Shown: piece after piece, positions 22,825 to 64,000 of the stretch
Numbering within the stretch: the first letter of the stretch is position 1
How the letters are laid out: every line of letters starts with the position of its first letter
Origin: Hydrolagus colliei
Lineage: Eukaryota
Assembly (NCBI GenBank): GCA_035084275.1
Contig: CM068758.1
Coordinates: 372,001-436,000, forward strand
DNA: 64,000 nucleotides
Direction of reading: 5' to 3'
Notes under the pieces: generated by a model
The model's input: the letters and a program-made list of their open reading frames with translations, nothing else
The model's database searches: none
What the model was told of the DNA's origin: nothing
Position numbers and translations under genes: made by a program

Positions 22825-22870
22825 TGATTGATTGATTGATTGAGCGATTGAGCGATTGAGTGATTGATTG
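22825..22870 (+). repeat. (GATT)n microsatellite, imperfect
   Basis: tgattgattgattgattgagcgattgagcgattgagtgattgattg. Confidence 0.8.
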
Positions 22871-23988: not shown

Positions 23989-24116
23989 GAGCCATTTATA
24001 TTGAACCATTACTTTGTACCTAGGCCAGAGCAGCCGTAACCTTCGGTGACCAGGACTGAGCTGTCCACTTTGTTTGAAGCCAAAGAGATCTTTGGTGTTT
24101 GTTTGATGAACATTTA

Positions 24117-33975: not shown

Positions 33976-34152
33976 TTAATATTCCCAGAGGGTGGAGGGG
34001 TCGATGGTGTCCGCGGAGGCCTTGAGGACGCCCGCGTGGTCCCCCTTCAGATACTTCCCATCCACCTTGATGGCCACCTTGTTGTAGTCGCAAAACTCCA
34101 TCAGGAAATCCACCGGTTTGTCACTGCTACTGGTGACGGACGAGTCGCTCCA
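33976..34152 (-). CDS. FSCN1: Fascin-1 last coding exon, partial (5' end lost in the gap)
   Basis: Reverse complement reads (W)[57 protein letters not shown], matching the fascin-1 C-terminus (human ...[44 protein letters not shown]). Convergent with RNF216, as at human 7p22. Confidence 0.96.
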
Positions 34153-34352
34153 NNNNNNNNNNNNNNNNNNNNNNNNNNNNNNNNNNNNNNNNNNNNNNNN
34201 NNNNNNNNNNNNNNNNNNNNNNNNNNNNNNNNNNNNNNNNNNNNNNNNNNNNNNNNNNNNNNNNNNNNNNNNNNNNNNNNNNNNNNNNNNNNNNNNNNNN
34301 NNNNNNNNNNNNNNNNNNNNNNNNNNNNNNNNNNNNNNNNNNNNNNNNNNNN
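34153..34352. other. Assembly gap (exactly 200 N, placeholder size)
   Basis: Run of 200 N that interrupts the FSCN1 exon on the left and an intron of the array on the right. Confidence 0.99.
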
Positions 34353-34641
34353 TCTCTTTCCACCGATAGCCAGGCTTCTCTCTCTCTCTCTCTCTCCCTT
34401 TTGCAGTGTAACGTCGGCTTCATTTTAATTCTCTCATTCCTGCTCCCTGCGTTAGGCCGACAAACCGTCAACTCTCTCTCTCCGCTCAACCCCCCCCCCC
34501 CCGCCCCCACCGCCCTCCCCATTTATGTGGACATGTAAAACGAGTTTGGGTCAACTGCTCTTGTCAAATAATATTACCTTCTTATCTACCGTTTGGTTGT
34601 ATTTAATTATTGAATGCTAAAATCTTGCAATTGTTATTTAG

Positions 34642-37600
34642 TGTGAAAACATTGAGTGCTGGATACAATTCTTTCGAACCAGCCAAACAGAAGGAAATCT
34701 ACAATGGCATCAAAACGTACCTCCAAGAAGGTAAACGTTATTGTTATTTTGGTTAAAGTGATCGTAGTTGAGATGACAATTTGACTGTATCCATGTGTAA
34801 GGAAATTAATTTAGTGCAGCTCTGGTTGCTGGTACTTGTAAAGCTAAACCTAAAGCCAGTAAGAGATTTTGGCTGGTGCTGGTGGCGGTGAGGAAGAAAC
34901 TAGGAATCAGAATAATTTTTTAATTTGACTTTTAGATGAAAACATTAAAGACAGAGTCAAAGTGTTTGTGAAGTATTAAACACACGTTCAACATTAATTA
35001 GTAAAGTTGATTCTCAAATGAATTGAAGCCTTTGTGTAATCACACTTTTCATTCCTTTGTACAGCAGGTCCTAAACCCAAATGCTACAACGCCAGTGACG
35101 CAGCTCTGAACTCTACTGCTTGGTTTGTTAACTACCTCGGACTATACCTGAGCCAAGTGACAGAGGCTGATCTTCTGTCTTTCTCTGATAACAAAGCAAA
35201 GGTAATTGTGAAGATAAAGTCAGCAGAAAACTTTTCTAAGTGTTTTATGCAGAAGAATAAGTTTTCAATGGCTCAATTCTCAATGCAATGCTTGACAATT
35301 CTGCTGTTAATCAGATTATTAGCTGTTGTTGTTGGCTGTGTCAAGGAATGTATGTGTAGATCATTATATGGGTCATTCAGTTCTGGGTTGTATTTCAATC
35401 CACCTCAACTTAATGCGATGGAAGTCACCAAATGAGATCAAAATTGTCTCTGTGGGTTGCCAACCATTTTTGAATTCCCCTTTTTCTTATTAGCCAATAT
35501 AAAGGTAACTGCTGTGGCCTGGCCAATATTGCCCCCGATTCCAAAATTCACAAAAAAAACAAAACCCTTTACATCGATTTGACAATTAACATCGCTGATT
35601 ATGAGAAGCTGCTACAAGAAATTGGCTTCCACATTTGCCCGCACACCATCCCATATTGAATATCAGACTATTTCACGAAGTGAATCATCACCGCATCACA
35701 CCTATTGATCACTGTTCTTGGTTGAGTAAACGTTGCTAATTTCATTTCAATGTTTGTGTTTCCAGCTTCAGGAATTCGCAGCTGATCCTGACAATCTGGC
35801 ATTGCTGGGAAACGTGACGTTGCCAATTGAAGTTGCGAAATTCTGCATTGCATTGGTGCTTGAAGGGAATCCGAATGTTAATATAATAAGGTATGGCAAT
35901 ATATTTCCACCCAAAGATATGAAATCCAAGTTTCTGGTCGAAATCACCTGTCGATCATCGTTCAGGAGGTAGATATTCACAAGTAGAAATTGACTTAAGT
36001 TTGCCAATAAGTAGACAATGATGCCAAATGATTGGACGTTCTTAGTTTTTGATCAGTGTTACTCAAGTCACAAGGAGACACTCTAGAGAGCCATTTTGGG
36101 ATGACCTTGTGGAGAGTCTCATTGGGGATCACTTAGTATCAGGGAGACCTGTTGGTCTGTCACTGACGCAGATTGCAAATACTGTTTTCCAGCCTGCCCG
36201 ATTCTCTGATTTGCTTGATTGCTGGTACAAACGCTCTTCGGTCCGCGAATGAGCAGCAAGTCTTGGCTGTAATCCAAAAGAAAAACCAAGTGTGTCGGGT
36301 GAGCCCCAGCAACAATACAGCACGGCCTCAAGCACCTGTGACGGACGAACAACTGAAGGTAAATAGCAAAGAGCGTTTGACCACCTTGCTGCTCCAATGG
36401 GCTGTCCTTCAGCAGCCAGGTTTGATAATGTGGTCAATATGTGTCGCCTGAATAAACCTGGCACCCAATCTGTTGACTCTGAGGCTTTGAGTGAAGACAT
36501 TTGGCGAAAGGCACAGAAGTCCACGGTCATTGTTGGGAATTTTTAAACGTTTTTCAACTTGATGTATGCGTCCAGTGAAGCTTGAGGACTTACTCTGTTC
36601 TTGTTTCTACAGTTCTCCATATATTTAGTGAGCCAAATTACCAACTTCTCTGTGGTTACTCTGAATCAATTGGGGCAATCAGCTGTGGGTCTATCACTGA
36701 AGCAGATTGCAGATACCGATCGAAATAATCTTCAGCAAGCCCTGCCAAGCCTGGGGCAAGTTATGGGTTGGAATTTTGGACAAGTCCACTTGATTGTGAG
36801 GAATGTGTTGAGCAATGGCTACCAGGTAAGACTTGTATTTATATCTGAGTCCACAAAACGCAGCCTGTAATTATTGTGATTGCATGGGTTTTTATGCAAT
36901 ATACGAGGCATGTTGAGTGGTGGTTAGAGCACTCACCTTCCAAGCGTGAGACCTGTGTTTCGAATCCAGGCAGGTCAAGGCAATGGCTTCCCAATGTTAG
37001 ATGTCGTTTAGAGAAACCTTGAGGTGAGCACATCTCTGGGTTAAACAAACTGAATGACAGGCAGAAAGCAACAAGGGAAGCCAAATGGAAACGGTTTGGA
37101 TCAAACGATAAACCTCACGACTCAACTTTTGTTTCCCCCCCCATTACTCCTGAAAACCTTCCATTTGTTTTCTTTGTTGAAATAGATCCGAGATGAACAG
37201 ACGCTGTTGAGTCTTGGAACCGTCATAGCTGGATGTCCAAGCAGACAATTCCAAAGCATTGAGCACAGACTACTCACCAATGTAACCAGAGACCCGGAGT
37301 TTGTGATCAATATTCAACAGGCCCCACAAGTTGTCCAGAGATTGATCGTTCTGAGGGTGAGTGATCATGAAATATCTGTCAGTAAGCGTCAGGAATATAA
37401 ACCCAAGCCACGCCTTGTTTCCTATTGAGGATTGTATTTCTAGATTGGTTCAATCCTGCCTGCAGACAGTCATAATACTAAACAAAAAACTGCTTGCACA
37501 GTGTGTTTTTGGTCAATTCTGTTGTGTTTAATTCCCATTCAGATATTGAATGCATCAAGTGGCAGTGCAGAAACAGTAAAGGACATTCCCCCAGGTCTAG

Positions 37601-40600
37601 CCAAACAGATCCCACTACTGTACCTGACCTCCTTAAACTTAGATCTTGGCCACATCAACAACAAAGAGTGGCTACCGAGTCAGGTGAGTGAATCGGCCTG
37701 TTACTTTTTTCCAAAGTAAAATAGCCGAATACAGTCCGAACGAATATTGTTGTGGTGGGTTAGTAATCCCACGTCTCTTCAATCCAAAGTTGCTCCACTG
37801 AGTTGAGAGAACCTGAAGGATAGTTGACGGCCTGAATTTAAACATTTCCAATGATTTCTCCCACAGGCCGCGGTGTTTTTTGAAAATATTGTCCGGAAGA
37901 ACAAATTTTTTGACACGTAAGTAATATTTATTCAGAATCTACATATAAAAGAGGTTTAAATCTTATGTTTAAGCGCTATGTCAATGCAAGTTGTTGTTGT
38001 TCAATACGTTAAGGTAGCTCCCGAAGTTGTGATGAGCAAGGCTTTCTAAGAGTAAATGGAATGATTTCTGGTGCAGTTTGTTTCTTCCTAGAATGAAGTG
38101 AAGGGTGTGAATTAACACTGATTTGTTTGCGTAGCTTTTCACCTTCTGTGCTGCGAGGCTTCAGCTGTGGGGCAGTCAAGACCCTGAATTCTACTGACTT
38201 CACTCAGCTGATTCAAGTATTGAAGTACAAGCGGGTCAAACTTGATGAAAGTCAGGTAAGACTGTTTGCTGAAATTGTACGAGAGAGAGAAATGTTTCAT
38301 TGCATTTGGGTTCACTTTCCTTTGTTTATTGGTGAGTTTGAGCCAGGAGTAATTGTTATAGACAGTCCTTTGGGAATTATTACTCTGTTGTGTCAACCCC
38401 TCCACAAAAGTACTCCAGGTTCTGCTGGAATTGATGTCCTCGTTCAGGTAGCCTTTAACAATTGGTTTGCTCTCTCACGTTACAGCTCAGTTGCATATTC
38501 TTTCGACTAAAATCGGATGAAATAGAGGTCGAGGTAGACGAGGTCCCGGAGGATGTTCTGCTGTATTTCAAGTAAGTATTTGTCTTTTGTACATACAACC
38601 ATAAAAGGATGAGAAGTGGAAACCAATTCTGCTTCGCTGGAGACTGGTCCTCCCGTCTACTGACAGAAGGAATACTGTTTTTAAAGAATAGGCAACATAT
38701 ATTTTACCCCAAAGCCTCACACCATTTAAGTATTAAAGATATATTTATATCCACTTGTTTTAGCTCTGCAGAATTCAAAACAACTCCAGAGTGCAAGAAA
38801 TTCTTCAAGGCTGTTGGAAAATCGAACATTAATGCCTTACCAAAGGGATTAGGAAGATACCAATTGTTGCAGAACGCTAAAACCTGCTTGGTAAGAACGG
38901 ATCTTATTTGGTCTTCTGCTATGCTTTTGATTACAGAATCTGTTGTTCAATACAAAGATACTTAAATGGATTGAATTTACTGTACAGACATCATGTGGAA
39001 ATGGTCCAGTGACCGTTGTAACTGTTGAATTATTCTCTCATAACCTTAGGGTATTCGTGAAGGAAGTCTGACAGAAGACAATGTAGAAACATTAGGTGCT
39101 TTGGTCTGTGATCTCGATGGGGCCTCTATCAAGACGTCTCATGTTTCCATTTTGGAGCAATTAAAGCATTGCGTTTCATACACTGAAAGTCAAAAGTCAG
39201 TGATTGAAGCTGTACTCAACAACAAGACAACCAGATACGGGTATGTTTGGAGCTGATTTCCTTTAGATTTCTTGGAGAACCAATATCAGCAGGGTTTCGA
39301 TCTAGAGCTTGGAATAGTTCCTCTCAATCCGCTGCCTGCTGCACTTGTCATTTGCACGCATCCTAAATGGGACTCCCATTGTATTTGCTGTTTGACAATA
39401 ACCTTATTTCATTGAGACGTTGAGAGCCTTGACCTGAGTGTTAGTGTATGGCCTGGAATACTGGACAAATGACAGGGATTATTTCCTTGTAGTTTCTCCA
39501 GGAGATGAGATTTAGATTGGAAACCTCTGATTGGAGATGTGTGAATTCTAGTGAGAAACTGCGCTCAAAATACTTATTGGTGAACTTTTTGTTTGAATAC
39601 AGTCTACCTTCATCATGGACCTCATTGTCGTTGACTGACCTTGGAAACCTACCTTTGGCTTTCACCTTCACATGGAGAAGTGTAAACTTGGTGAGTTTCA
39701 ACTGGTAAAGAATTCTTTCAGATGAAGTTAAGGGTAAAAGTAACTTTCTTTTCCAAAGTATTTTGCATGCTGCTTTACACATTGGAATATGTTGTGGTAA
39801 ACAGTGTTACTCTGTAAACTGGATTTGTCTGTAGTTGACGCTTTATTGGGTTAATTAATCTCTTTGAGGTACTGACTATATTCTACCTTGCAGCCTGCCT
39901 TGAAATATGCCCTCCCAAGATTTCTCAAGAGATTGAAAACTACCAACTCACCGAATGCTGTCCTGGGATTCATCAATCAGTTGAAGTTGCACGCAAACGT
40001 TACAGAAAGTATGTCATTTTCTTACAGGATTGGTTAAAGAAATAACATTGTGTGTGTGTGTGTATATATATATACGTGTGTGCAGTGTACAAATGGATGT
40101 TATATGTAACAAACTGTTGTGTTTGCAGCCTGTACAAATCTCAAAGCGGTCGACATTGATGAGCTAACCCCTGTTAAATATGATGCTACCCAGTTACACA
40201 ACTGTTTGAGTGATCGCGTACTGAAGAATAACATATTTGTATTGGGAACTCTGTCCTTTGATACTGCTCAGCTGCACGTTCTGAAAAACAAACTTGTTAA
40301 GGTAAAAATCCGGCTTGAAACCTTCGTAATAATAAATAATTTGAGAACCAAAGTGAGTTTTATGTTTTCCTTTGTTTAAAACTGCTCTTGATGATCCGTG
40401 TGTAAAATTATCGAGCAAATGATGCAAAACGGAGTAAATTATTATTATTCCAGCGATACAGATTGTTTTATCCTTTCCCTTCCATCACAATCGTTTCACA
40501 ATTATGCAAGAATCCTTCACAGTTGATGTAAATTTGAGTTCTAATAACTGAGTAATGCTATGATGAAGACAAATCCACACTCTTACAATAAGTGCTCGCC

Positions 40601-43600
40601 TGTGTGCTGGACAATAAGACCACATGTTGGGATTGAATCTGATTGTTTGGATCTCTGTGATGCAGCTTTACCCCGGTGGGATCCCAGAAGCTGCAATCCT
40701 ACTGCTGGGCAACATATCTACTGTGTTCAACGCATCCCAAATGAGCAGCTGGAATATAACTCAAGTTGACACACTCGAACTAGTGCTGAGGAATCCGTTA
40801 GAGCACTTCCAGGTACTTAAACTGAGAAATGACGAGATGAGTTTGGATGGAAAGGAAAAGCCCTTTGATGCTCTGATCAGCCATGTTTGAGGAGATTGTC
40901 TAAGGGATGGATGGTGCAGCACTGATTGGTGGGGTTGGGTGTGAGGGTGGGTGTGCGTTTGGGGTTGGGGGTGGAGGTGGAGGAGGTGAAACCCAATTGG
41001 GAATCAAAGAAAGAAAAGTTGAAATGGGGCAAATGTTTGCTATTTATCTGGTGTTTCTCTGTGCAATGATAGCTGATCCGTGTTCACCTCTTACAGGTCA
41101 CGACCATCATTGCAAGATTCTTGGCCTTTGATGGAAAACTGAATGGATCTGCATTGAAAGCTGTCGGTGGTGCAAACCTGTGCCTTCTGAATGAAAACCA
41201 ACTGAGGACAATTTCCTCCCTGGAGTAAGTGATGAAATCTTTCTGATCCACAATCAGGCAAGCAATCAGGAACTGGAGCCATGGTTGCTGTTGATGCTGT
41301 TCTTGGTGTTTGGTATTTTGGTGTATTTGGGGTGGAATGTGCAGCCAATGGAAATATTTTCCCTTTTCTCCCACAGAGATGCAGGAGCTCTAGATATTTC
41401 TTTGTGCAGTCAGTCAAAGAAGAACCTGCTTTACCAGAAAGCTGTTGTTGCTTTGAAGGCTCAGAATATTAACCCGATCCCCCAATTTCAACTGTTAAAG
41501 TCGTACATTAGTAAGTCTCGGAATATTTACCTTTCATTCTTGTCCACTTCATCCATTCGGCCTTAGTTGAGTTCACTGAGTCTTTGTCTGTAAAACAAGA
41601 AACTATTTCAATAGTTATATTAAACATTTTTTTCCTACTTTATAAACAATAATAACTTGCCTTTTTGTCAAGCCATGACTTAGGATATAGCGTATGGCGG
41701 AGCTGAAAGCGGAGGTGGTTCATATACTGTGTTAAGCTGATGGCTCTGATTTTTCCCTTCAGGTGGAGCGAGACTGGTTGATCTGCAAACTCTGGCAAAC
41801 CACACAGTCCATATGGATTTTGCAACCTTCAAGACACTGAATCCTGAAGAAGTGACGGTTGGTACATGGACAATATGTTGGCATCACTGTGGTTGGGGGG
41901 GGGGCATTTCTTTAGCTGCTTCCCTTTGTCCTTCTGTTGGTTCCCTTTGGCGACTCTATGAATGACAGAGATTTGTTAAATGTTTCTCTTTTAGAATCTG
42001 ACAGCTGAGAACCTGATTGACTTACTTGGAAGTAACCTGCCTGCACTGATAACTGGATTCAATGAAACTGTTGTGATAGTTTGGGTGAATTCACACTTTG
42101 TATCTGAAGTCAGGAAAGTTGGGCTTACGGGAGGAATTCCAGATCCTCCTCTAGGTATGTTCCTCGTCAACGGCAAATAAATCTGCACATCAATTGCGGC
42201 TTTTGAAACACTGCTCTGAGGAGGATATCCCCCTCTGATAATGTTTGCACTATTTCTGTTAGATTTGCTTTGGATTCTGTTGTGAGTGTTTCCAATAGTC
42301 ATTAAATTCAGATGATTTTCTAATAAGTACATGACACTATTTTTGACAACAGATATATTTTATTAAGGATCAGATAAATGTAGTGCTCTATAGTTTTATG
42401 TATCTTAATACTGTACTTTTCTGTTTGACTTTTCCAACAGAAACTGTTTTATGTGAAGCCAGAAATAGGTAAGTTTCTTCTGTTTCCCGCAGTGCCGTTG
42501 TCCTCACACTCAGTCCAAAGTCACAAAGACTTGGAGAAGTCTCTCTCAACAATATGGCTAGATTGGTGATTAGGCAGTGAAGCACATGGACATTACAGAA
42601 TCCTGCCTCTGTTATCAGTCACAAAACCCACCTGTTTAACCGGTATCCTCTGTTTCCTTACAGTTCAGCGGTGAATGATTTCCTGATGACCCTCAACAGG
42701 ACCCAACTCTGCAATGTTGCCATTATAGACTACGCATGTGCTCGGGTAAGCTGTGTTCCGCTCTAGAATTCCACACAACAGTGTCTTCCTTCACGCGGTT
42801 CATCCACAGGGAACAATGTTGTAGTCCTTCCCAACTTTCTTGGTTCCCTATACAAATGTAGTCAAATTGTTGTATCATCTCCGCCTGTCGAAATAATACC
42901 TCTGATCGATTGTTTTCAGATAACTTAACAGTTTCCATTATTTGTCAACCGATTCCTTGCAGATTGAACTGCTGGCAAATCTATCCAGTTATGACGTGAC
43001 TGCTCTGTTTGACTGCTACACTCGCTCAAAGGCTTTGAGGGTCGCAGATGAAAAACCGCTGACTCTGTTTATTCAAAAGCTTGACAGAACCACACTTAAC
43101 CAGGCGTTGGACATGTTTAATAAAAAGGTAAGCCCTTATTGATTCCATACTGTAGGGGTACTACTGTAAACTATTAAACGCCTCCTTACTGATTCACATT
43201 AAACTTATTGGTGTGTTTCAGACTTTAAATATGTCTTCAATTGGTCTGGAAAGCAAGACAACGTTCTTTAACGCCTTGTGGGAGAATGTGAAGCTCAACG
43301 TGACCAGCCCTGCTCTCCTGGCCAAATGGTTTCAGCAAAGATTCAGACCATTCATTGCAGGCATTCCTCAATCAGTCCTGACTGACCTTCTGGTGAGGAA
43401 TGTCACATGTGATGGATACCAAGCAGTGTAAGTCTATTGTTTTCTCTTACAATCACCTGGTGCTGGGAATTGCAGAACAATCCTGGGTATAAACAGTGAT
43501 GGAAAAGAAGGAAACATGGAACAATAAACTGACTTGTGCTGTCAATTTGTCTTCACTTAGTGTGAAAGGCCTGAGTGATGGATTTGGAGAGATGCCACTG

Positions 43601-46216
43601 CCAACGAGACACACCATACTGCAAGTCTGGATCCTTAGATACCTGAACAGCACAGGTAACCTGGATCCAATCAGTATCTGTAAATCAATCATTTCTTTCA
43701 CATGTCGGCAAACGCCGAGTTTGTAAACGCACAATAGATAACCTTCTTTGCCATTCATCTCCAGGTGCTGGCTGTATCAGCAACACCAATGGCTCTCGAG
43801 ACTGGCTGGTGAAGAATTGGGGAACGTTCAGCAAACTGGCTGATATAAAGCATCTGTCGGACTTGAATTCCAATTTCAGCGCAGTAAGTGACTGACACAT
43901 TTTGTTTTTTTTTGAGATGATAAGCAGCAGGAGATGCTTTGTGTTCTGAAGACATCAGTACCAACAACAACGACAAAATTACATTGATAGAGTGCCTTTC
44001 ATGTCGGGAGGACGTGCCAAGGCGCTGAGATCAAAATGATGACATGAATTAAATGTTGCTTTCATTAATATTATCAAACATACCCCAAATATCTTGCTAA
44101 ACATCAAGTATTGTATTTGTTTCACCGAGTAATCTCTGTCATCATTTGTGGTTACGTCAAAAAATACTTTTTCACACGGAGTCATCTTTTCTGACAGGTT
44201 GAAGCAGGGGGCTTGCTGACTGTATCACAACTTGGAGAATTTGTGGGGAGAAATGGTACCTTGAGAAATGTTTATGACGTACACAAGCTTTTCACCATCA
44301 TCACAAATGTTACCGTGACTGAATTCCTGGACAGCTTTGCCTCGGCTGCCTACAGGGTAGGAGAACTTTGTGTGTTGTTTTTAATATAACCTGTATCCGT
44401 CAAGCACACATTTGGAGTTTAGTATGTGAGCACTGAGAGACAATGGCTCTGCCCTTTTCCATGCTGTGTTTATAGTTGGTTGATGTGCTCTCTGTCTCCT
44501 GGCATTGAAGCAGTTGATTTATTCCTAAATGTTTACAGAACCACGTGAAGCTGTCCCCTAACGTCACAACAGCTTTCCTGAGGGAGGTTCTGAACCGCAC
44601 TCAGTCGATCCTTTCAAACGCAGACTATAATGAGCTCTCCATCTGGTTCAACAATAGACTGGCATTCCTCCTGCCGGGACTCACCGAACAGTTGGTGCCT
44701 TTGGTCCTGGTCACTCAGAGCTGCAAAGGATCCCAATTCATGTAAGTTTGATGCACTTTGTTTATACTCAGTGGATTGGAGTCCCAAAGTGAATTTCATA
44801 TTAAGCGTTTGTAAATTTAGTGGTAGCTTTCTGTTTCATAAATTATGTTGTACGTTGGTGACATAACCCTCTAATGCCTTGAATTTGACCTTTTATAGTG
44901 TATCTGTGCTGAGCTCCATCAAGCCACCGTTGTATTCTGATATTCAAGAAGCCATTTATGCAAAGATACTACACTTTAATAAAGGTAACAACACAGATTT
45001 CATCCATTAGAACCTCGCAATGCAATTTAACCCAACGCAGTTCCCACCATTTGAAGTACTAAATGTTGCTGTTTGTTGGGTATTGTCAATAAGCAGGAAT
45101 GATGCTGTGGGCAACATTACATTGGTCATCGTTTAACCTAATCTCATTTTTGTGGCTATTTGCTTCAGCGCCTCGGGACGTCCTCCCAACATGAAAGCTG
45201 CTAATCCAGCTCAATAGAAACAACAACAACAACAACTTTGATCCACGCCGGACGGCGTCTCAGAGCGTTATTGAGTAAGACATCATTGAATAAGATGGGA
45301 GCTTGAACTGAACGTTTTTTCCACTTTCTTTCCAGAATTCCCCCTTCGGTGCTATGAAAACAACAATTTTGTTGTTTATCTGAACAACACCTTCCGAAAT
45401 TTCTCTAAACATTTGAGTTTGACGGATTTGGTCTCATTGATACCGAAGAACAGAGCAGCTCAGGTAAGAACACCAACAACAAAATGACACTTGTATAGAC
45501 GGCGCCTTTCCCGTCAGCAGGACATCCCAAGGCGCTGGACAGTCACTGTGTCAGTCCCGAGCTGGGGACAGGGTGGGGAGGGAAACGGGGGTATTAGGAG
45601 TTGCCGGTGGGACCATATTTAAGTTCAATCATTTTTTTGTCTGTTTTTCTTCCAGGTTTTGAATGCGACTGAACCCACAGATGTGGCTGATTTGCTGAGC
45701 AGACCTGAATTCATCGATGACAACAGCAATCTGACTCTGTTGTTACTGAGCTACCAATCCATCCAGAAACTAGGAATATTTGTGGACAGATTCAACCAAA
45801 ACAGTCACAATGTAAGTGGCAGATGGTTTAGAACAGAACGCAGCATCTCTTCTGGGTCAGTGGCTTTAGGCCGACGTTAATAATGAGAGGTCGAAATGTT
45901 CTATTGTTCCACACGGTTGACAAACTCAGTCAATCAGGAATGTTGTAGTTGGAATGGGATTTTCTGTTCTGTGTGATTAAGAGAAGTTAAATATTAATGT
46001 TATTCTACGTTTACAGAGTGACCTGAGAGACACCACCCTGGCTGCCATCATGGAGGGTCTGTGGCCACTGTTTGCCAGGAGCTTGTCTGAACTGAGTGAC
46101 GCCCAAGCCAAGGTGTGGCTTGATGCCAGGCTGGAACCGTATCTGCCTTTCATCAGCCAAGACCTGCTGGCTTCTCAAGACACCCTGAGAGTGAAGTGCC
46201 AACCCTACAGAACAAT
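34642..46216 (+). CDS. Mesothelin-family (MSLN/MSLNL/otoancorin/stereocilin superfamily) giant protein, repeat unit 1: 32 exons, 1,428 codons
   Basis: Exons (all AG/GT, phases compatible): 34642-34730, 35065-35201, 35766-35890, 36193-36358, 36613-36825, 37186-37356, 37543-37683, 37867-37916, 38135-38255, 38486-38571, 38764-38890, 39050-39240, 39603-39690, 39894-40008, 40129-40301, 40666-40812, 41097-41224, 41377-41510, 41763-41857, 41995-42154, 42441-42468, 42664-42745, 42963-43127, 43222-43427, 43561-43655, 43765-43883, 44198-44356, 44539-44741, 44899-44984, 45336-45463, 45656-45811, 46017-46216. Sum 4,284 nt, no in-frame stop. Confidence 0.88.
36912..36980 (+). mobile_element. tRNA-derived SINE head in an array intron (copies at +11,901 and +23,802)
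   Basis: gtggttagagcactcaccttccaagcgtgagacctgtgtttcgaatccaggcaggtca, homologous to the heads at 12905-12965 and 26325-26400. Confidence 0.6.
38135..42154 (+). CDS. Mesothelin-homologous region (exons 9-20 of the unit; copies at 50036-54055 and 61937->64000)
   Basis: Collinear similarity to human mesothelin as I recall it: SPSVLRGFSC/SPRQLLGFPC, VKLDESQLSC/VKLSTEQLRC, LGALVCDL/LGGLACDL, RYGLPSSWT/PYGPPSTWS, QLHVLKNKLVKLYPGGIPE/QLDVLKHKLDELYPQGYPE, WNIT/WNVT, VHMDFATFKTL/VSMDLATFMKL, GLTGGIP/GLQGGIP. Confidence 0.92.
43960..44030 (-). mobile_element. SINE/L2 tail fragments in array introns (also 45165-45270, 45475-45540; repeated in unit 2)
   Basis: (AAC)n...gagtgcctttcatgtcgggaggacgtgccaaggcgctg, the same tail as at 13270-13330 and 24750-24820. 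Confidence 0.55.
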
Positions 46217-46542
46217 GTAAATACCGTGCGGGCTTTGTGTGTGGGTGGGTGCCTCTTCCACCGATAGCCAGGCTTCTCTCTCTCTCTCTCTCTCCCTTTT
46301 GCAGTGTAACGTCCGGCTTCATTTTAATTCTCTCATTCCTGCTCCCTGCGTTAGGCCGACAAACCGTCAACTCTCTCTCTCCGCTCAAACCCCCCCCCCC
46401 CCCGCCCCCACCGCCCTCCCCATTTATGTGGACATGTAAAACGAGTTTGGGTCAACTGCTCTTGTCAAATAATATTACCTTCTTATCTACCGTTTGGTTG
46501 TATTTAATTATTGAATGCTAAAATCTTGCAATTGTTATTTAG

Positions 46543-52500: not shown

Positions 52501-55500
52501 CTGTGTGCTGGACAATAAGACCACATGTTGGGATTGAATCTGATTGTTTGGATCTCTGTGATGCAGCTTTACCCCGGTGGGATCCCAGAAGCTGCAATCC
52601 TACTGCTGGGCAACATATCTACTGTGTTCAACGCATCCCAAATGAGCAGCTGGAATATAACTCAAGTTGACACACTCGAACTAGTGCTGAGGAATCCGTT
52701 AGAGCACTTCCAGGTACTTAAACTGAGAAATGACGAGATGAGTTTGGATGGAAAGGAAAAGCCCTTTGATGCTCTGATCAGCCATGTTTGAGGAGATTGT
52801 CTAAGGGATGGATGGTGCAGCACTGATTGGTGGGGTTGGGTGTGAGGGTGGGTGTGCGTTTGGGGTTGGGGGTGGAGGTGGAGGAGGTGAAACCCAATTG
52901 GGAATCAAAGAAAGAAAAGTTGAAATGGGGCAAATGTTTGCTATTTATCTGGTGTTTCTCTGTGCAATGATAGCTGATCCGTGTTCACCTCTTACAGGTC
53001 ACGACCATCATTGCAAGATTCTTGGCCTTTGATGGAAAACTGAATGGATCTGCATTGAAAGCTGTCGGTGGTGCAAACCTGTGCCTTCTGAATGAAAACC
53101 AACTGAGGACAATTTCCTCCCTGGAGTAAGTGATGAAATCTTTCTGATCCACAATCAGGCAAGCAATCAGGAACTGGAGCCATGGTTGCTGTTGATGCTG
53201 TTCTTGGTGTTTGGTATTTTGGTGTATTTGGGGTGGAATGTGCAGCCAATGGAAATATTTTCCCTTTTCTCCCACAGAGATGCAGGAGCTCTAGATATTT
53301 CTTTGTGCAGTCAGTCAAAGAAGAACCTGCTTTACCAGAAAGCTGTTGTTGCTTTGAAGGCTCAGAATATTAACCCGATCCCCCAATTTCAACTGTTAAA
53401 GTCGTACATTAGTAAGTCTCGGAATATTTACCTTTCATTCTTGTCCACTTCATCCATTCGGCCTTAGTTGAGTTCACTGAGTCTTTGTCTGTAAAACAAG
53501 AAACTATTTCAATAGTTATATTAAACATTTTTTTCCTACTTTATAAACAATAATAACTTGCCTTTTTGTCAAGCCATGACTTAGGATATAGCGTATGGCG
53601 GAGCTGAAAGCGGAGGTGGTTCATATACTGTGTTAAGCTGATGGCTCTGATTTTTCCCTTCAGGTGGAGCGAGACTGGTTGATCTGCAAACTCTGGCAAA
53701 CCACACAGTCCATATGGATTTTGCAACCTTCAAGACACTGAATCCTGAAGAAGTGACGGTTGGTACATGGACAATATGTTGGCATCACTGTGGTTGGGGG
53801 GGGGGCATTTCTTTAGCTGCTTCCCTTTGTCCTTCTGTTGGTTCCCTTTGGTGACTCTATGAATGACAGAGATTTGTTAAATGTTTCTCTTTTAGAATCT
53901 GACAGCTGAGAACCTGATTGACTTACTTGGAAGTAACCTGCCTGCACTGATAACTGGATTCAATGAAACTGTTGTGATAGTTTGGGTGAATTCACACTTT
54001 GTATCTGAAGTCAGGAAAGTTGGGCTTACGGGAGGAATTCCAGATCCTCCTCTAGGTATGTTCCTCGTCAACGGCAAATAAATCTGCACATCAATTGCGG
54101 CTTTTGAAACACTGCTCTGAGGAGGATATCCCCCTCTGATAATGTTTGCACTATTTCTGTTAGATTTGCTTTGGATTCTGTTGTGAGTGTTTCCAATAGT
54201 CATTAAATTCAGATGATTTTCTAATAAGTACATGACACTATTTTTGACAACAGATATATTTTATTAAGGATCAGATAAATGTAGTGCTCTATAGTTTTAT
54301 GTATCTTAATACTGTACTTTTCTGTTTGACTTTTCCAACAGAAACTGTTTTATGTGAAGCCAGAAATAGGTAAGTTTCTTCTGTTTCCCGCAGTGCCGTT
54401 GTCCTCACACTCAGTCCAAAGTCACAAAGACTTGGAGAAGTCTCTCTCAACAATATGGCTAGATTGGTGATTAGGCAGTGAAGCACATGGACATTACAGA
54501 ATCCTGCCTCTGTTATCAGTCACAAAACCCACCTGTTTAACCGGTATCCTCTGTTTCCTTACAGTTCAGCGGTGAATGATTTCCTGATGACCCTCAACAG
54601 GACCCAACTCTGCAATGTTGCCATTATAGACTACGCATGTGCTCGGGTAAGCTGTGTTCCGCTCTAGAATTCCACACAACAGTGTCTTCCTTCACGCGGT
54701 TCATCCACAGGGAACAATGTTGTAGTCCTTCCCAACTTTCTTGGTTCCCTATACAAATGTAGTCAAATTGTTGTATCATCTCCGCCTGTCGAAATAATAC
54801 CTCTGATCGATTGTTTTCAGATAACTTAACAGTTTCCATTATTTGTCAACCGATTCCTTGCAGATTGAACTGCTGGCAAATCTATCCAGTTATGACGTGA
54901 CTGCTCTGTTTGACTGCTACACTCGCTCAAAGGCTTTGAGGGTCGCAGATGAAAAACCGCTGACTCTGTTTATTCAAAAGCTTGACAGAACCACACTTAA
55001 CCAGGCGTTGGACATGTTTAATAAAAAGGTAAGCCCTTATTGATTCCATACTGTAGGGGTACTACTGTAAACTATTAAACGCCTCCTTACTGATTCACAT
55101 TAAACTTATTGGTGTGTTTCAGACTTTAAATATGTCTTCAATTGGTCTGGAAAGCAAGACAACGTTCTTTAACGCCTTGTGGGAGAATGTGAAGCTCAAC
55201 GTGACCAGCCCTGCTCTCCTGGCCAAATGGTTTCAGCAAAGATTCAGACCATTCATTGCAGGCATTCCTCAATCAGTCCTGACTGACCTTCTGGTGAGGA
55301 ATGTCACATGTGATGGATACCAAGCAGTGTAAGTCTATTGTTTTCTCTTACAATCACCTGGTGCTGGGAATTGCAGAACAATCCTGGGTATAAACAGTGA
55401 TGGAAAAGAAGGAAACATGGAACAATAAACTGACTTGTGCTGTCAATTTGTCTTCACTTAGTGTGAAAGGCCTGAGTGATGGATTTGGAGAGATGCCACT

Positions 55501-58117
55501 GCCAACGAGACACACCATACTGCAAGTCTGGATCCTTAGATACCTGAACAGCACAGGTAACCTGGATCCAATCAGTATCTGTAAATCAATCATTTCTTTC
55601 ACATGTCGGCAAACGCCGAGTTTGTAAACGCACAATAGATAACCTTCTTTGCCATTCATCTCCAGGTGCTGGCTGTATCAGCAACACCAATGGCTCTCGA
55701 GACTGGCTGGTGAAGAATTGGGGAACGTTCAGCAAACTGGCTGATATAAAGCATCTGTCGGACTTGAATTCCAATTTCAGCGCAGTAAGTGACTGACACA
55801 TTTTGTTTTTTTTTGAGATGATAAGCAGCAGGAGATGCTTTGTGTTCTGAAGACATCAGTACCAACAACAACGACAAAATTACATTGATAGAGTGCCTTT
55901 CATGTCGGGAGGACGTGCCAAGGCGCTGAGATCAAAATGATGACATGAATTAAATGTTGCTTTCATTAATATTATCAAACATACCCCAAATATCTTGCTA
56001 AACATCAAGTATTGTATTTGTTTCACCGAGTAATCTCTGTCATCATTTGTGGTTACGTCAAAAAATACTTTTTCACACGGAGTCATCTTTTCTGACAGGT
56101 TGAAGCAGGGGGCTTGCTGACTGTATCACAACTTGGAGAATTTGTGGGGAGAAATGGTACCTTGAGAAATGTTTATGACGTACACAAGCTTTTCACCATC
56201 ATCACAAATGTTACCGTGACTGAATTCCTGGACAGCTTTGCCTCGGCTGCCTACAGGGTAGGAGAACTTTGTGTGTTGTTTTTAATATAACCTGTATCCG
56301 TCAAGCACACATTTGGAGTTTAGTATGTGAGCACTGAGAGACAATGGCTCTGCCCTTTTCCATGCTGTGTTTATAGTTGGTTGATGTGCTCTCTGTCTCC
56401 TGGCATTGAAGCAGTTGATTTATTCCTAAATGTTTACAGAACCACGTGAAGCTGTCCCCTAACGTCACAACAGCTTTCCTGAGGGAGGTTCTGAACCGCA
56501 CTCAGTCGATCCTTTCAAACGCAGACTATAATGAGCTCTCCATCTGGTTCAACAATAGACTGGCATTCCTCCTGCCGGGACTCACCGAACAGTTGGTGCC
56601 TTTGGTCCTGGTCACTCAGAGCTGCAAAGGATCCCAATTCATGTAAGTTTGATGCACTTTGTTTATACTCAGTGGATTGGAGTCCCAAAGTGAATTTCAT
56701 ATTAAGCGTTTGTAAATTTAGTGGTAGCTTTCTGTTTCATAAATTATGTTGTACGTTGGTGACATAACCCTCTAATGCCTTGAATTTGACCTTTTATAGT
56801 GTATCTGTGCTGAGCTCCATCAAGCCACCGTTGTATTCTGATATTCAAGAAGCCATTTATGCAAAGATACTACACTTTAATAAAGGTAACAACACAGATT
56901 TCATCCATTAGAACCTCGCAATGCAATTTAACCCAACGCAGTTCCCACCATTTGAAGTACTAAATGTTGCTGTTTGTTGGGTATTGTCAATAAGCAGGAA
57001 TGATGCTGTGGGCAACATTACATTGGTCATCGTTTAACCTAATCTCATTTTTGTGGCTATTTGCTTCAGCGCCTCGGGACGTCCTCCCAACATGAAAGCT
57101 GCTAATCCAGCTCAATAGAAACAACAACAACAACAACTTTGATCCACGCCGGACGGCGTCTCAGAGCGTTATTGAGTAAGACATCATTGAATAAGATGGG
57201 AGCTTGAACTGAACGTTTTTTCCACTTTCTTTCCAGAATTCCCCCTTCGGTGCTATGAAAACAACAATTTTGTTGTTTATCTGAACAACACCTTCCGAAA
57301 TTTCTCTAAACATTTGAGTTTGACGGATTTGGTCTCATTGATACCGAAGAACAGAGCAGCTCAGGTAAGAACACCAACAACAAAATGACACTTGTATAGA
57401 CGGCGCCTTTCCCGTCAGCAGGACATCCCAAGGCGCTGGACAGTCACTGTGTCAGTCCCGAGCTGGGGACAGGGTGGGGAGGGAAACGGGGGTATTAGGA
57501 GTTGCCGGTGGGACCATATTTAAGTTCAATCATTTTTTTGTCTGTTTTTCTTCCAGGTTTTGAATGCGACTGAACCCACAGATGTGGCTGATTTGCTGAG
57601 CAGACCTGAATTCATCGATGACAACAGCAATCTGACTCTGTTGTTACTGAGCTACCAATCCATCCAGAAACTAGGAATATTTGTGGACAGATTCAACCAA
57701 AACAGTCACAATGTAAGTGGCAGATGGTTTAGAACAGAACGCAGCATCTCTTCTGGGTCAGTGGCTTTAGGCCGACGTTAATAATGAGAGGTCGAAATGT
57801 TCTATTGTTCCACACGGTTGACAAACTCAGTCAATCAGGAATGTTGTAGTTGGAATGGGATTTTCTGTTCTGTGTGATTAAGAGAAGTTAAATATTAATG
57901 TTATTCTACGTTTACAGAGTGACCTGAGAGACACCACCCTGGCTGCCATCATGGAGGGTCTGTGGCCACTGTTTGCCAGGAGCTTGTCTGAACTGAGTGA
58001 CGCCCAAGCCAAGGTGTGGCTTGATGCCAGGCTGGAACCGTATCTGCCTTTCATCAGCCAAGACCTGCTGGCTTCTCAAGACACCCTGAGAGTGAAGTGC
58101 CAACCCTACAGAACAAT
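46543..58117 (+). CDS. Mesothelin-family giant protein, repeat unit 2 (32 exons, unit-1 coordinates +11,901)
   Basis: Coding sequence looks identical to unit 1. Exon 46017-46216 ends in phase 2 (ACA AT|gt) and joins 46543 (ag|T GTG AAA) to give ...CQPYRTIVKTLS..., so the frame continues across units. Confidence 0.86.
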
Positions 58118-58443
58118 GTAAATACCGTGCGGGCTTTGTGTGTGGGTGGGTGCCTCTTCCACCGATAGCCAGGCTTCTCTCTCTCTCTCTCTCTCCCTTT
58201 TGCAGTGTAACGTCCGGCTTCATTTTAATTCTCTCATTCCTGCTCCCTGCGTTAGGCCGACAAACCGTCAACTCTCTCTCTCCGCTCAAACCCCCCCCCC
58301 CCCCGCCCCCACCGCCCTCCCCATTTATGTGGACATGTAAAACGAGTTTGGGTCAACTGCTCTTGTCAAATAATATTACCTTCTTATCTACCGTTTGGTT
58401 GTATTTAATTATTGAATGCTAAAATCTTGCAATTGTTATTTAG

Positions 58444-61400
58444 TGTGAAAACATTGAGTGCTGGATACAATTCTTTCGAACCAGCCAAACAGAAGGAAAT
58501 CTACAATGGCATCAAAACGTACCTCCAAGAAGGTAAACGTTATTGTTATTTTGGTTAAAGTGATCGTAGTTGAGATGACAATTTGACTGTATCCATGTGT
58601 AAGGAAATTAATTTAGTGCAGCTCTGGTTGCTGGTACTTGTAAAGCTAAACCTAAAGCCAGTAAGAGATTTTGGCTGGTGCTGGTGGCGGTGAGGAAGAA
58701 ACTAGGAATCAGAATAATTTTTTAATTTGACTTTTAGATGAAAACATTAAAGACAGAGTCAAAGTGTTTGTGAAGTATTAAACACACGTTCAACATTAAT
58801 TAGTAAAGTTGATTCTCAAATGAATTGAAGCCTTTGTGTAATCACACTTTTCATTCCTTTGTACAGCAGGTCCTAAACCCAAATGCTACAACGCCAGTGA
58901 CGCAGCTCTGAACTCTACTGCTTGGTTTGTTAACTACCTCGGACTATACCTGAGCCAAGTGACAGAGGCTGATCTTCTGTCTTTCTCTGATAACAAAGCA
59001 AAGGTAATTGTGAAGATAAAGTCAGCAGAAAACTTTTCTAAGTGTTTTATGCAGAAGAATAAGTTTTCAATGGCTCAATTCTCAATGCAATGCTTGACAA
59101 TTCTGCTGTTAATCAGATTATTAGCTGTTGTTGTTGGCTGTGTCAAGGAATGTATGTGTAGATCATTATATGGGTCATTCAGTTCTGGGTTGTATTTCAA
59201 TCCACCTCAACTTAATGCGATGGAAGTCACCAAATGAGATCAAAATTGTCTCTGTGGGTTGCCAACCATTTTTGAATTCCCCTTTTTCTTATTAGCCAAT
59301 ATAAAGGTAACTGCTGTGGCCTGGCCAATATTGCCCCCGATTCCAAAATTCACAAAAAAAACAAAACCCTTTACATCGATTTGACAATTAACATCGCTGA
59401 TTATGAGAAGCTGCTACAAGAAATTGGCTTCCACATTTGCCCGCACACCATCCCATATTGAATATCAGACTATTTCACGAAGTGAATCATCACCGCATCA
59501 CACCTATTGATCACTGTTCTTGGTTGAGTAAACGTTGCTAATTTCATTTCAATGTTTGTGTTTCCAGCTTCAGGAATTCGCAGCTGATCCTGACAATCTG
59601 GCATTGCTGGGAAACGTGACGTTGCCAATTGAAGTTGCGAAATTCTGCATTGCATTGGTGCTTGAAGGGAATCCGAATGTTAATATAATAAGGTATGGCA
59701 ATATATTTCCACCCAAAGATATGAAATCCAAGTTTCTGGTCGAAATCACCTGTCGATCATCGTTCAGGAGGTAGATATTCACAAGTAGAAATTGACTTAA
59801 GTTTGCCAATAAGTAGACAATGATGCCAAATGATTGGACGTTCTTAGTTTTTGATCAGTGTTACTCAAGTCACAAGGAGACACTCTAGAGAGCCATTTTG
59901 GGATGACCTTGTGGAGAGTCTCATTGGGGATCACTTAGTATCAGGGAGACCTGTTGGTCTGTCACTGACGCAGATTGCAAATACTGTTTTCCAGCCTGCC
60001 CGATTCTCTGATTTGCTTGATTGCTGGTACAAACGCTCTTCGGTCCGCGAATGAGCAGCAAGTCTTGGCTGTAATCCAAAAGAAAAACCAAGTGTGTCGG
60101 GTGAGCCCCAGCAACAATACAGCACGGCCTCAAGCACCTGTGACGGACGAACAACTGAAGGTAAATAGCAAAGAGCGTTTGACCACCTTGCTGCTCCAAT
60201 GGGCTGTCCTTCAGCAGCCAGGTTTGATAATGTGGTCAATATGTGTCGCCTGAATAAACCTGGCACCCAATCTGTTGACTCTGAGGCTTTGAGTGAAGAC
60301 ATTTGGCGAAAGGCACAGAAGTCCACGGTCATTGTTGGGAATTTTTAAACGTTTTTCAACTTGATGTATGCGTCCAGTGAAGCTTGAGGACTTACTCTGT
60401 TCTTGTTTCTACAGTTCTCCATATATTTAGTGAGCCAAATTACCAACTTCTCTGTGGTTACTCTGAATCAATTGGGGCAATCAGCTGTGGGTCTATCACT
60501 GAAGCAGATTGCAGATACCGATCGAAATAATCTTCAGCAAGCCCTGCCAAGCCTGGGGCAAGTTATGGGTTGGAATTTTGGACAAGTCCACTTGATTGTG
60601 AGGAATGTGTTGAGCAATGGCTACCAGGTAAGACTTGTATTTATATCTGAGTCCACAAAACGCAGCCTGTAATTATTGTGATTGCATGGGTTTTTATGCA
60701 ATATACGAGGCATGTTGAGTGGTGGTTAGAGCACTCACCTTCCAAGCGTGAGACCTGTGTTTCGAATCCAGGCAGGTCAAGGCAATGGCTTCCCAATGTT
60801 AGATGTCGTTTAGAGAAACCTTGAGGTGAGCACATCTCTGGGTTAAACAAACTGAATGACAGGCAGAAAGCAACAAGGGAAGCCAAATGGAAACGGTTTG
60901 GATCAAACGATAAACCTCACGACTCAACTTTTGTTTCCCCCCCCATTACTCCTGAAAACCTTCTATTTGTTTTCTTTGTTGAAATAGATCCGAGATGAAC
61001 AGACGCTGTTGAGTCTTGGAACCGTCATAGCTGGATGTCCAAGCAGACAATTCCAAAGCATTGAGCACAGACTACTCACCAATGTAACCAGAGACCCGGA
61101 GTTTGTGATCAATATTCAACAGGCCCCACAAGTTGTCCAGAGATTGATCGTTCTGAGGGTGAGTGATCATGAAATATCTGTCAGTAAGCGTCAGGAATAT
61201 AAACCCAAGCCACGCCTTGTTTCCTATTGAGGATTGTATTTCTAGATTGGTTCAATCCTGCCTGCAGACAGTCATAATACTAAACAAAAAACTGCTTGCA
61301 CAGTGTGTTTTTGGTCAATTCTGTTGTGTTTAATTCCCATTCAGATATTGAATGCATCAAGTGGCAGTGCAGAAACAGTAAAGGACATTCCCCCAGGTCT

Positions 61401-64000
61401 AGCCAAACAGATCCCACTACTGTACCTGACCTCCTTAAACTTAGATCTTGGCCACATCAACAACAAAGAGTGGCTACCGAGTCAGGTGAGTGAATCGGCC
61501 TGTTACTTTTTTCCAAAGTAAAATAGCCGAATACAGTCCGAACGAATATTGTTGTGGTGGGTTAGTAATCCCACGTCTCTTCAATCCAAAGTTGCTCCAC
61601 TGAGTTGAGAGAACCTGAAGGATAGTTGACGGCCTGAATTTAAACATTTCCAATGATTTCTCCCACAGGCCGCGGTGTTTTTTGAAAATATTGTCCGGAA
61701 GAACAAATTTTTTGACACGTAAGTAATATTTATTCAGAATCTACATATAAAAGAGGTTTAAATCTTATGTTTAAGCGCTATGTCAATGCAAGTTGTTGTT
61801 GTTCAATACGTTAAGGTAGCTCCCGAAGTTGTGATGAGCAAGGCTTTCTAAGAGTAAATGGAATGATTTCTGGTGCAGTTTGTTTCTTCCTAGAATGAAG
61901 TGAAGGGTGTGAATTAACACTGATTTGTTTGCGTAGCTTTTCACCTTCTGTGCTGCGAGGCTTCAGCTGTGGGGCAGTCAAGACCCTGAATTCTACTGAC
62001 TTCACTCAGCTGATTCAAGTATTGAAGTACAAGCGGGTCAAACTTGATGAAAGTCAGGTAAGACTGTTTGCTGAAATTGTACGAGAGAGAGAAATGTTTC
62101 ATTGCATTTGGGTTCACTTTCCTTTGTTTATTGGTGAGTTTGAGCCAGGAGTAATTGTTATAGACAGTCCTTTGGGAATTATTACTCTGTTGTGTCAACC
62201 CCTCCACAAAAGTACTCCAGGTTCTGCTGGAATTGATGTCCTCGTTCAGGTAGCCTTTAACAATTGGTTTGCTCTCTCACGTTACAGCTCAGTTGCATAT
62301 TCTTTCGACTAAAATCGGATGAAATAGAGGTCGAGGTAGACGAGGTCCCGGAGGATGTTCTGCTGTATTTCAAGTAAGTATTTGTCTTTTGTACATACAA
62401 CCATAAAAGGATGAGAAGTGGAAACCAATTCTGCTTCGCTGGAGACTGGTCCTCCCGTCTACTGACAGAAGGAATACTGTTTTTAAAGAATAGGCAACAT
62501 ATATTTTACCCCAAAGCCTCACACCATTTAAGTATTAAAGATATATTTATATCCACTTGTTTTAGCTCTGCAGAATTCAAAACAACTCCAGAGTGCAAGA
62601 AATTCTTCAAGGCTGTTGGAAAATCGAACATTAATGCCTTACCAAAGGGATTAGGAAGATACCAATTGTTGCAGAACGCTAAAACCTGCTTGGTAAGAAC
62701 GGATCTTATTTGGTCTTCTGCTATGCTTTTGATTACAGAATCTGTTGTTCAATACAAAGATACTTAAATGGATTGAATTTACTGTACAGACATCATGTGG
62801 AAATGGTCCAGTGACCGTTGTAACTGTTGAATTATTCTCTCATAACCTTAGGGTATTCGTGAAGGAAGTCTGACAGAAGACAATGTAGAAACATTAGGTG
62901 CTTTGGTCTGTGATCTCGATGGGGCCTCTATCAAGACGTCTCATGTTTCCATTTTGGAGCAATTAAAGCATTGCGTTTCATACACTGAAAGTCAAAAGTC
63001 AGTGATTGAAGCTGTACTCAACAACAAGACAACCAGATACGGGTATGTTTGGAGCTGATTTCCTTTAGATTTCTTGGAGAACCAATATCAGCAGGGTTTC
63101 GATCTAGAGCTTGGAATAGTTCCTCTCAATCCGCTGCCTGCTGCACTTGTCATTTGCACGCATCCTAAATGGGACTCCCATTGTATTTGCTGTTTGACAA
63201 TAACCTTATTTCATTGAGACGTTGAGAGCCTTGACCTGAGTGTTAGTGTATGGCCTGGAATACTGGACAAATGACAGGGATTATTTCCTTGTAGTTTCTC
63301 CAGGAGATGAGATTTAGATTGGAAACCTCTGATTGGAGATGTGTGAATTCTAGTGAGAAACTGCGCTCAAAATACTTATTGGTGAACTTTTTGTTTGAAT
63401 ACAGTCTACCTTCATCATGGACCTCATTGTCGTTGACTGACCTTGGAAACCTACCTTTGGCTTTCACCTTCACATGGAGAAGTGTAAACTTGGTGAGTTT
63501 CAACTGGTAAAGAATTCTTTCAGATGAAGTTAAGGGTAAAAGTAACTTTCTTTTCCAAAGTATTTTGCATGCTGCTTTACACATTGGAATATGTTGTGGT
63601 AAACAGTGTTACTCTGTAAACTGGATTTGTCTGTAGTTGACGCTTTATTGGGTTAATTAATCTCTTTGAGGTACTGACTATATTCTACCTTGCAGCCTGC
63701 CTTGAAATATGCCCTCCCAAGATTTCTCAAGAGATTGAAAACTACCAACTCACCGAATGCTGTCCTGGGATTCATCAATCAGTTGAAGTTGCACGCAAAC
63801 GTTACAGAAAGTATGTCATTTTCTTACAGGATTGGTTAAAGAAATAACATTGTGTGTGTGTGTGTATATATATATACGTGTGTGCAGTGTACAAATGGAT
63901 GTTATATGTAACAAACTGTTGTGTTTGCAGCCTGTACAAATCTCAAAGCGGTCGACATTGATGAGCTAACCCCTGTTAAATATGATGCTACCCAGTTACA
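58444..64000 (+). CDS. Mesothelin-family giant protein, repeat unit 3 (exons 1-15, cut by the window end; coordinates +23,802)
   Basis: Same exons as unit 1. The last partial exon starts at 63931 (CTNLKAVDIDELTPVKYDATQL...). Confidence 0.86.

Follow-up and report, generated by a model that had tools for sequence, protein, structure and literature searches.

Do the near-identical mesothelin-like units that follow one another on contig CM068758.1 of the Hydrolagus colliei assembly GCA_035084275.1 form separate genes, or are they parts of a single gene? We analysed a stretch of 64,000 nucleotides, C25:372,001-436,000 (C25, in full G000:C25, is this contig), referred to below as the window; positions without a prefix are window positions. 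The initial annotation of this DNA took the units for modules of one reading frame instead of tandem paralogues, and our results point the same way: the locus has one putative signal exon and one glycosylphosphatidylinositol (GPI)-like exon, diverged modules follow the array in frame, and the genes of other cartilaginous fishes are chained too. As judged from sequence, the window probably holds the middle of one holocephalan mesothelin (msln) gene encoding a single giant precursor, for which release by furin is predicted.

The array encodes one continuous reading frame

Self-BLAST of the window showed that 34354-52099 and 46253-64000 are 99.97% identical, which defines a unit of 11,901 bp. Past the ragged contig start the window copies differ by two substitutions (41951/53852 and 49063/60964). 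The near-identical array extends beyond the window to C25:463,512 and comprises about 4.8 units, whose copies are 99.93-99.99% identical to each other; all 154 mapped array exons retain their splice sites, and there is one coding change, in two copies.

The exon model of the gene was built by hand, with exons picked by eye on the unit sequence, and the H. colliei gene model and its furin motifs are predicted from genomic sequence. The unit has the 32 exons initially annotated, whose sum of 4,284 nt (1,428 codons) is corrected to 4,281 nt (1,427 codons) by the choice within a tandem AG acceptor pair at exon 2, where 35065 gives the longer and 35068 the shorter sum. AG/GT borders are present at 78 of 78 complete window exons, and the junctions 42154/42441, 42468/42664 and 46216/46543 are found as annotated. 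A further candidate exon, 45169-45274, was rejected because of an in-frame stop.

The spliced frame is free of stops over 3,459 codons, or 3,482 when the partial last exon is included, and the other two frames of the spliced window model contain 200 and 278 stops. The chance that all 32 intron-like stretches of matching lengths are free of stops is about 10^-39, in a control that ignores the choice of exons by eye. The annotated uninterrupted frame therefore stands, but its left end is not open: it is the assembly gap of 200 N listed in Table 1. Neither a signal exon nor a stop was found within any unit, and no hydrophobic tail is present within the unit (best 19-residue hydropathy 1.69), in keeping with the earlier claim that the units lack a start, a stop and a GPI signal. 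Also as described before, the frame continues after the mesothelin C-end through a 28-nt micro-exon (exon 21) into a Cys-containing segment (exons 22-23). BLASTP of the unit protein against itself revealed no internal repeat. Its 1,427 residues include 34 N-glycosylation sequons and no R-x-x-R motif.

Reading on past exon 20 (42155-42181) leads after eight codons to a stop at an AATAAA (42176), 22 nt into intron 20, and another AATAAA lies just past the matching donor of the diverged module A described below. The former weakly suggests a possible switch to a secreted isoform.

The units contain a mesothelin domain

The Pfam Mesothelin profile (PF06060) matches six of 29 scanned stretches of the window, collinearly over exons 9-19 and profile positions 58-534. 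Exon 12 alone scores 31.5 bits against a curated cut-off of 25.8 and is the only one of the 29 stretches above it, which bears out the annotated identity; orthologues score 217-1,119 bits with the same profile. Pfam Stereocilin stays below its cut-off, with 12.8 bits against 26.6 (E 0.064) on one exon of the 29 stretches. Exon 15 holds both cysteines equivalent to human C302 and C326, the register being taken from the alignment of P0008, a sawshark orthologue, to 7ued; a direct PDB search with exon 15 returned mesothelin at E 1, too weak to use. Transferred through the same alignment, the position of human W321 is occupied by Ala in P0008 and by Thr in the array unit. Since W321 belongs to the human CA125 site, human-type CA125/mucin binding is unsupported, and so is the mucin-binding role first proposed.

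Structures were modelled for two orthologues, P0008 for the junction and P0006 for the repeats. Both models are all-helical, with a predicted local distance difference test score (pLDDT) of 73.6 and a predicted template modelling score (pTM) of 0.40 for P0008, and a pLDDT of 86.7 and a pTM of 0.57 for P0006. The top seven Foldseek matches of the P0008 fold are mesothelin, with the human crystals best, and phmmer gives E 1e-31; the P0006 fold finds generic HEAT solenoids only (template modelling score about 0.15-0.2). These models are consistent with the helical solenoid that had been expected.

Both ends of the gene lie outside the window

Downstream, a joined C25 model contains 213 exons, 9,800 codons and seven full mesothelin domains, with one stop after a hydrophobic tail; its internal exons are canonical in 212 of 212 cases (one GC donor). 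On C25, about five near-identical units come first; they are followed by the diverged module A, a second 28-nt micro-exon and further repeats, and the model closes with the terminal module B and a GPI-like exon. In pairwise comparison, array unit, module A and module B have mesothelin domains that are 53%, 42% and 41% identical (53% for A, 41% for the terminal B). The modules keep their exon order and phases and their introns are unalignable, a combination that an assembly error cannot yield. The terminal exon, C25:505,973-506,070, encodes a Ser-rich stretch and then a hydrophobic tail and stop; we call it GPI-like on the basis of composition and hydrophobicity, and its counterpart in Callorhinchus milii (C. 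milii) is nearly identical.

The last exon of module A carries a Thr/Pro/Ala-rich extension of 353 codons, 159 of them Thr. About 300 codons of it (C25:481,820-482,742) are tandem repeats that make up a mucin-like linker and are absent from the C. milii model. T-rich stretches with the same end motif as this linker also lie at C25:130,400 and 183,300. A short donor in the linker is also in frame, so that the exact exon structure is uncertain, and a further small exon is likely near C25:483,463.

Upstream, the unplaced contig C295 matches the array at 99.7-99.8% over its final 3.5 kb, and before this part it contains a putative signal exon, a 28-nt micro-exon, a module head and about seven four-exon repeats. 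The signal-peptide-like exon, C295:9875-9941, was identified by a hydropathy scan; it is hydrophobic, begins with ATG and has a phase-1 GTAAGT donor. Candidates for both ends that the initial annotation proposed to seek beyond the window are therefore at hand, and homologues of the array micro-exon follow the C295 signal exon and module A. If five units is right, the C25 model, some 1,460 C295 codons and five overlapping exons add up to a full precursor of roughly 11,500 residues. A genome-wide DNA search with C295:10,001-20,000 returned repeats only, by which a second 5' copy was neither found nor excluded.

Number of array copies

The architecture could be real and the five near-identical copies nevertheless an assembly product, the true number being lower or higher. 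We consider this somewhat unlikely, even though the contig begins inside the array at the gap, the copies are so similar, and base 37162, which distinguishes copies 1 and 2, reads differently in all aligned contigs of both same-species runs. In these runs, X4 (the same species, another sample and study) and X1 (the same species), unit contigs have depths of 204-255 and 141-177, and unrelated single contigs depths of about 50-66 and 37-50; the ratio of about 4-5 is no direct copy number, but it is in line with the assembly. Near-identical arrays are also present in the Rhinoraja and Hypanus models. A diverged single-copy exon has a much lower depth, 16 and 6 in the two runs.

Over 34500-46252 contig depth climbs along the array order (about 204-216, 227, 239 and 255 in X4); X1 has the same trend, and partial copies or bias may lie behind it. 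Among the rows shown from four contig runs aligned to the region there were no splice joints, only joints of repeat elements. No RNA run was listed as containing the region, a result with no bearing on expression. Four Rhinoraja proteins (P0009, P0188, P0189 and P0191) are near-identical module models of 1,224 residues on small unplaced scaffolds, with 1-4 differences, which suggests that Rhinoraja has its own recent array.

Chaining in other species

The best hit is from C. milii (84%). The array is 80-83% identical to that species without a stop, and the C. milii model P0001 has the same mesothelin-to-head junction. A junction/repeat query matched 293 proteins. Of the 156 fetched, 70 contain a mesothelin domain, and in 17 a module head comes after an internal mesothelin C-end; three further ones contain several mesothelin domains but fall outside this head-junction rule. 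Every module can be aligned over its full length to single-module proteins such as P0005, and only P0001 emerged among 132 candidates for short proteins spanning the junction.

Including cluster look-ups, more than one in-frame mesothelin domain occurs in models of 11 cartilaginous species, with at most five domains in 6,700-7,900 residues: C. milii, Rhincodon, Stegostoma, Hemiscyllium, Chiloscyllium, Pristiophorus, Amblyraja, Leucoraja, Rhinoraja, Mobula and Hypanus. Chained models are found as well in the bony vertebrates axolotl, Tachysurus, Nothobranchius, Hoplias, Salminus, Gymnothorax and Serrasalmus, and models of Xenopus, Mantella, Pelobates, sea bass and loach have one terminal mesothelin domain only. 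These multi-mesothelin public models are automated predictions, not transcripts. The architecture, as far as predicted proteins tell, is not peculiar to the H. colliei genome and is unrecognised within the public models; no description of chained mesothelin domains was found in the literature, in a search that did not extend to supplements and most subscription journals.

In a quick tree, one clade unites the terminal modules of chimaeras, sharks and rays and another the internal modules (Shimodaira-Hasegawa-like approximate likelihood-ratio test 100 each). As both clades span the cartilaginous fishes, chaining is older than the chimaera-shark split. The modules of axolotl, killifish and catfish cluster within species, which fits independent expansion or homogenisation. 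H. colliei is sister to C. milii in the trees; a second tree, made by FastTree, leaves the internal nodes around the chimaera array unit without resolution. The short junction of the chimaera array resembles the first module of sharks and skates. A synonymous/non-synonymous count on 31 listed differences was uninformative.

Closest to RNA evidence are two skate open reading frames (ORFs) from Logan, each of 3,067 residues, whose contigs measure 10,469 and 10,496 nt. Both begin with a signal peptide and span the mesothelin-to-head junction at the point where the RefSeq mslna model ends. An intron-free skate ORF of this gene would derive from spliced RNA, in which case the exon 20-21-22 type of junction, one of those named for a check by the initial annotation, would be crossed by transcripts. 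Both ORFs end in module 2 by apparent intron read-through and do not reach the GPI exon.

These ends, together with two public models that end by read-through just past the mesothelin C-end and the AATAAA that overlaps the read-through stop in intron 20, raise the possibility of one gene most of whose transcripts stop early through intronic polyadenylation or intron retention, e.g., in intron 20, yielding a ladder of shorter secreted proteins and only rarely the full chain. This is unlikely. With six AATAAA on this strand of each unit, one near a donor carries little weight; retained introns are common in RNA assemblies; and the GPI exon and the penultimate and terminal modules are conserved in cartilaginous fishes without a signal exon of their own.

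Inactivation of the gene in H. colliei, with the array as a relic, is very unlikely. At least four repeat exons in C295:14,000-19,000 are frameshifted or lack an acceptor, but no damage is seen in the modelled exons from C295:20,227 on or in any of the 213 on C25, the array has remained free of stops at its distance from C. milii, and the lesions are concentrated in a single part of a small unplaced contig, as would be expected of errors in a low-coverage consensus. That the units are separate tandem paralogous genes with their own starts and ends is highly improbable, for although RefSeq splits some skate and ray loci into adjacent genes, no unit has a terminus of its own, the skate ORFs cross the junction, and a single putative signal exon and a single GPI-like exon serve the whole locus.

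The furin-type site is kept only near the C-terminus

Human mesothelin is cut by furin into MPF and a mature domain that begins at E296, six residues before C302 (Zhan et al. 2023, PMC10035497). We read the residues aligned at the human mature-domain start in 49 domain rows from 22 cartilaginous-fish proteins. The penultimate modules have R-x-K/R-R in 10 of 10 species with a model reaching the GPI tail, plus two further rows. The terminal modules of 11 species (12 rows) have a full site in five, a minimal one in four and only a dibasic one in two. In the upstream modules R-x-x-R is present in 0 of 22 rows and a sequon within the last ten residues in 22 of 22, some with a bare RR; these rows come from nine sources and are non-independent, as they include near-identical copies and shared descent. 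Three Rhinoraja rows whose models begin mid-domain were left out, and Stegostoma module 1 has no residue at the column.

The H. colliei gene follows this pattern. At the exon 14 position module A has RSRR and module B the minimal site RVSR, and the only R-x-K/R-R in the 9,800-residue model is the one in module A. By the aligned residues, the furin-type site is thus kept only in the last two modules. The product would then probably be an uncut giant rod that is set free near its C-terminus rather than a permanent tether. Of the extracellular rod first envisaged, the helical modules in one chain hold, and its permanent anchoring becomes improbable.

Features of the window and neighbouring loci

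The positions of the array and of its exons are collected in Table 1. To the left of the gap, on the minus strand, a fascin gene (Pfam Fascin) has its last coding exon at 33976-34152, which is cut by the 200 N. The rest of this gene was found neither next to the gap nor in C295:1-10,000; as that part of C295 lacks a fascin exon, C295 does not close the gap, and this scaffold join may lack sequence or be misplaced. Farther left, at about 16,600-24,100 (plus strand), are 3' exons with a His/Pro-rich C-terminus that we take, from their translation, to be RNF216-like. The downstream neighbours, on the minus strand, are presumably a MARF1-like gene (C25 at about 540,700) and a MYH11-like myosin heavy chain gene (C25:586,000-595,000).

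Table 1. Features of the array in the window
Feature	Position	Strand	Remark
Assembly gap, 200 N	34153-34352		Contig on the right begins within the array
Array copy 1, about 11.9 kb, numbered from the start of the contig	34353-46252	+	Exons 1-32 at 34642-46216
Array copy 2, 11,901 bp	46253-58153	+	
Array copy 3, partial in the window	58154-64000	+	Array goes on beyond the window
Exons 1-4	34642-36358	+	End of the helical N-type repeat region of the module
Exons 5-8	36613-37916	+	Helical segment between repeats and Pfam mesothelin domain; in all modules
Exons 9-20	38135-42154	+	Complete mesothelin-precursor-like domain (MPF-like half and mature-mesothelin-like half)
Exon 14	39894-40008	+	Furin-site position; N-V-T sequon in array units instead of R-x-x-R
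Exon 20	41995-42154	+	Mesothelin C-end; phase-1 donor
Micro-exon 21, 28 nt	42441-42468	+	Phase 1 to 2; opens the next module
Exons 22-23	42664-43127	+	Cys-containing module head
Exons 24-32	43222-46216	+	Helical repeats of the fish/amphibian msln N-terminal type

A second mesothelin-like locus, C25:192,701-211,337 (plus strand; L041-L043), has two tandem mature-mesothelin-like domains about 13.4 kb apart. It lies right of another 200-N gap, and one chain or two genes are both possible.

Discussion

The reading that we prefer is a single msln gene in which the module corresponds to the gene body, everything that lies between the signal and GPI exons. Phase 1 is shared by the end of the signal exon, the end of exon 20 and the start of the GPI exon; with phase-1 introns on both sides of the body, its tandem duplication stays in frame. 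A first duplication, as placed by the tree, would precede the chimaera-shark split, and the array would be the result of recent multiplication or homogenisation, most likely through unequal crossing-over. Its present boundaries (exit at about 43911, entry at about 44517, after exon 26 and before exon 28) lie within the region of exons 26-28 and not at module ends, which would fit a later unequal crossing-over between modules.

The predicted precursor would run from the signal peptide through the head, about seven four-exon repeats, about five array modules, module A, the Thr/Pro/Ala linker and module B to the GPI signal. Furin would cut only before the mature domains of modules A and, probably, B, as in human mesothelin. 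The products would be three: an N-glycosylated alpha-solenoid of about 9,400 residues without internal cuts, a middle piece of about 1,700 residues that includes the mucin-like linker, and, remaining on the cell, a normal GPI-anchored mesothelin of about 290 residues. By analogy with otoancorin and stereocilin, the likeliest role of the released or loosely held rod would be a structural one, as a long multivalent spacer or scaffold in an epithelial surface coat or an extracellular gel, for and against which we see the case as evenly balanced. A wider proposal falls slightly short of that: the chain of cartilaginous fishes would rank among the longest known extracellular alpha-solenoid proteins, sequons would have replaced its internal furin sites, one cut near the membrane would free a fibre of variable length as the giant ancestral counterpart of MPF, several bony fishes and axolotl would have reinvented the chain independently, and human MSLN would be what is left, after trimming, of a structural tether or gel scaffold.

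Several observations, besides the limits of the furin count given above, weigh against parts of this picture. The linker in the P0008 junction model has low confidence and the model does not support a rigid continuous rod, so that a stiff rod and a jointed chain are equally likely. The link from C295 to C25 rests on repeat overlap with an unplaced contig, and that contig carries the damaged exons. The skate ORFs stop short of the GPI exon, and several public models split the locus, e.g., into four Leucoraja loci. Bony vertebrates are mixed with respect to the furin site: catfish and killifish repeats lack it, an internal Hoplias module keeps it, and axolotl has basic sites in all three modules. 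Finally, 10 of 13 listed exonic differences to related species change a residue, which is no sign of strong constraint, in a small and non-random subset.

The gene shares with human MSLN the homologous precursor domain, the ARM/HEAT-like solenoid, the mature-domain Cys pair, the C-terminal GPI-like signal and, in modules A and B, the furin-type site before the mature domain. Human MSLN, however, has 622 residues and one domain, whereas here there are seven, each after about 900 residues of extra helical repeats; five of the seven lack the furin site, and the array unit does not have the residue W321. Models of fish and amphibian msln (Xenopus msln.L, 1,675 residues; sea bass mslnb, 4,675 residues) consist of signal, head, N-terminal repeats, domain and GPI signal, i.e., one module plus the ends. 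They are longer by small repeats before one terminal domain, whereas in H. colliei the whole body including the domain is duplicated and six of seven domains are internal. The shark, ray and C. milii models XP_059510198.1, XP_060696376.1, XP_032896963.1, XP_048465576.1, XP_059834805.1 and XP_007904336.1 show orthologous chaining, the same upstream, penultimate and terminal classes and the same furin pattern, but they are partial, with two to five domains and without functional annotation; here there are seven domains, candidates for both ends are located and the array is near-identical.

Profilaggrin and progranulin are tandem polyproteins with whole units in one frame and in variable copy number that are cut between the units. 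Unlike such a cleaved polyprotein, most units here are without a recognisable cutting site. Otoancorin and stereocilin, long GPI-anchored helical proteins of the same superfamily, have been proposed to attach cells to acellular gels or the tectorial membrane (Sathyanarayana et al. 2009, PMC2628672); they are not reported as chains of whole-body modules. The one hint of expression is a row of a catshark semen proteome table (PMC11083954) that names a mesothelin-like protein, possibly the product of this gene.

Across sharks, rays and chimaeras the public annotation of the gene is in fragments. The normal function of mesothelin, a cancer target under intense study, is unclear (PMC10035497), and the giant multi-domain form that is conserved in cartilaginous fishes speaks for a structural role. 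A whole gene body duplicated between phase-1 introns and a furin site retained only near the membrane make up a testable evolutionary model, which predicts three processing products, variation in copy number and the tissue of expression.

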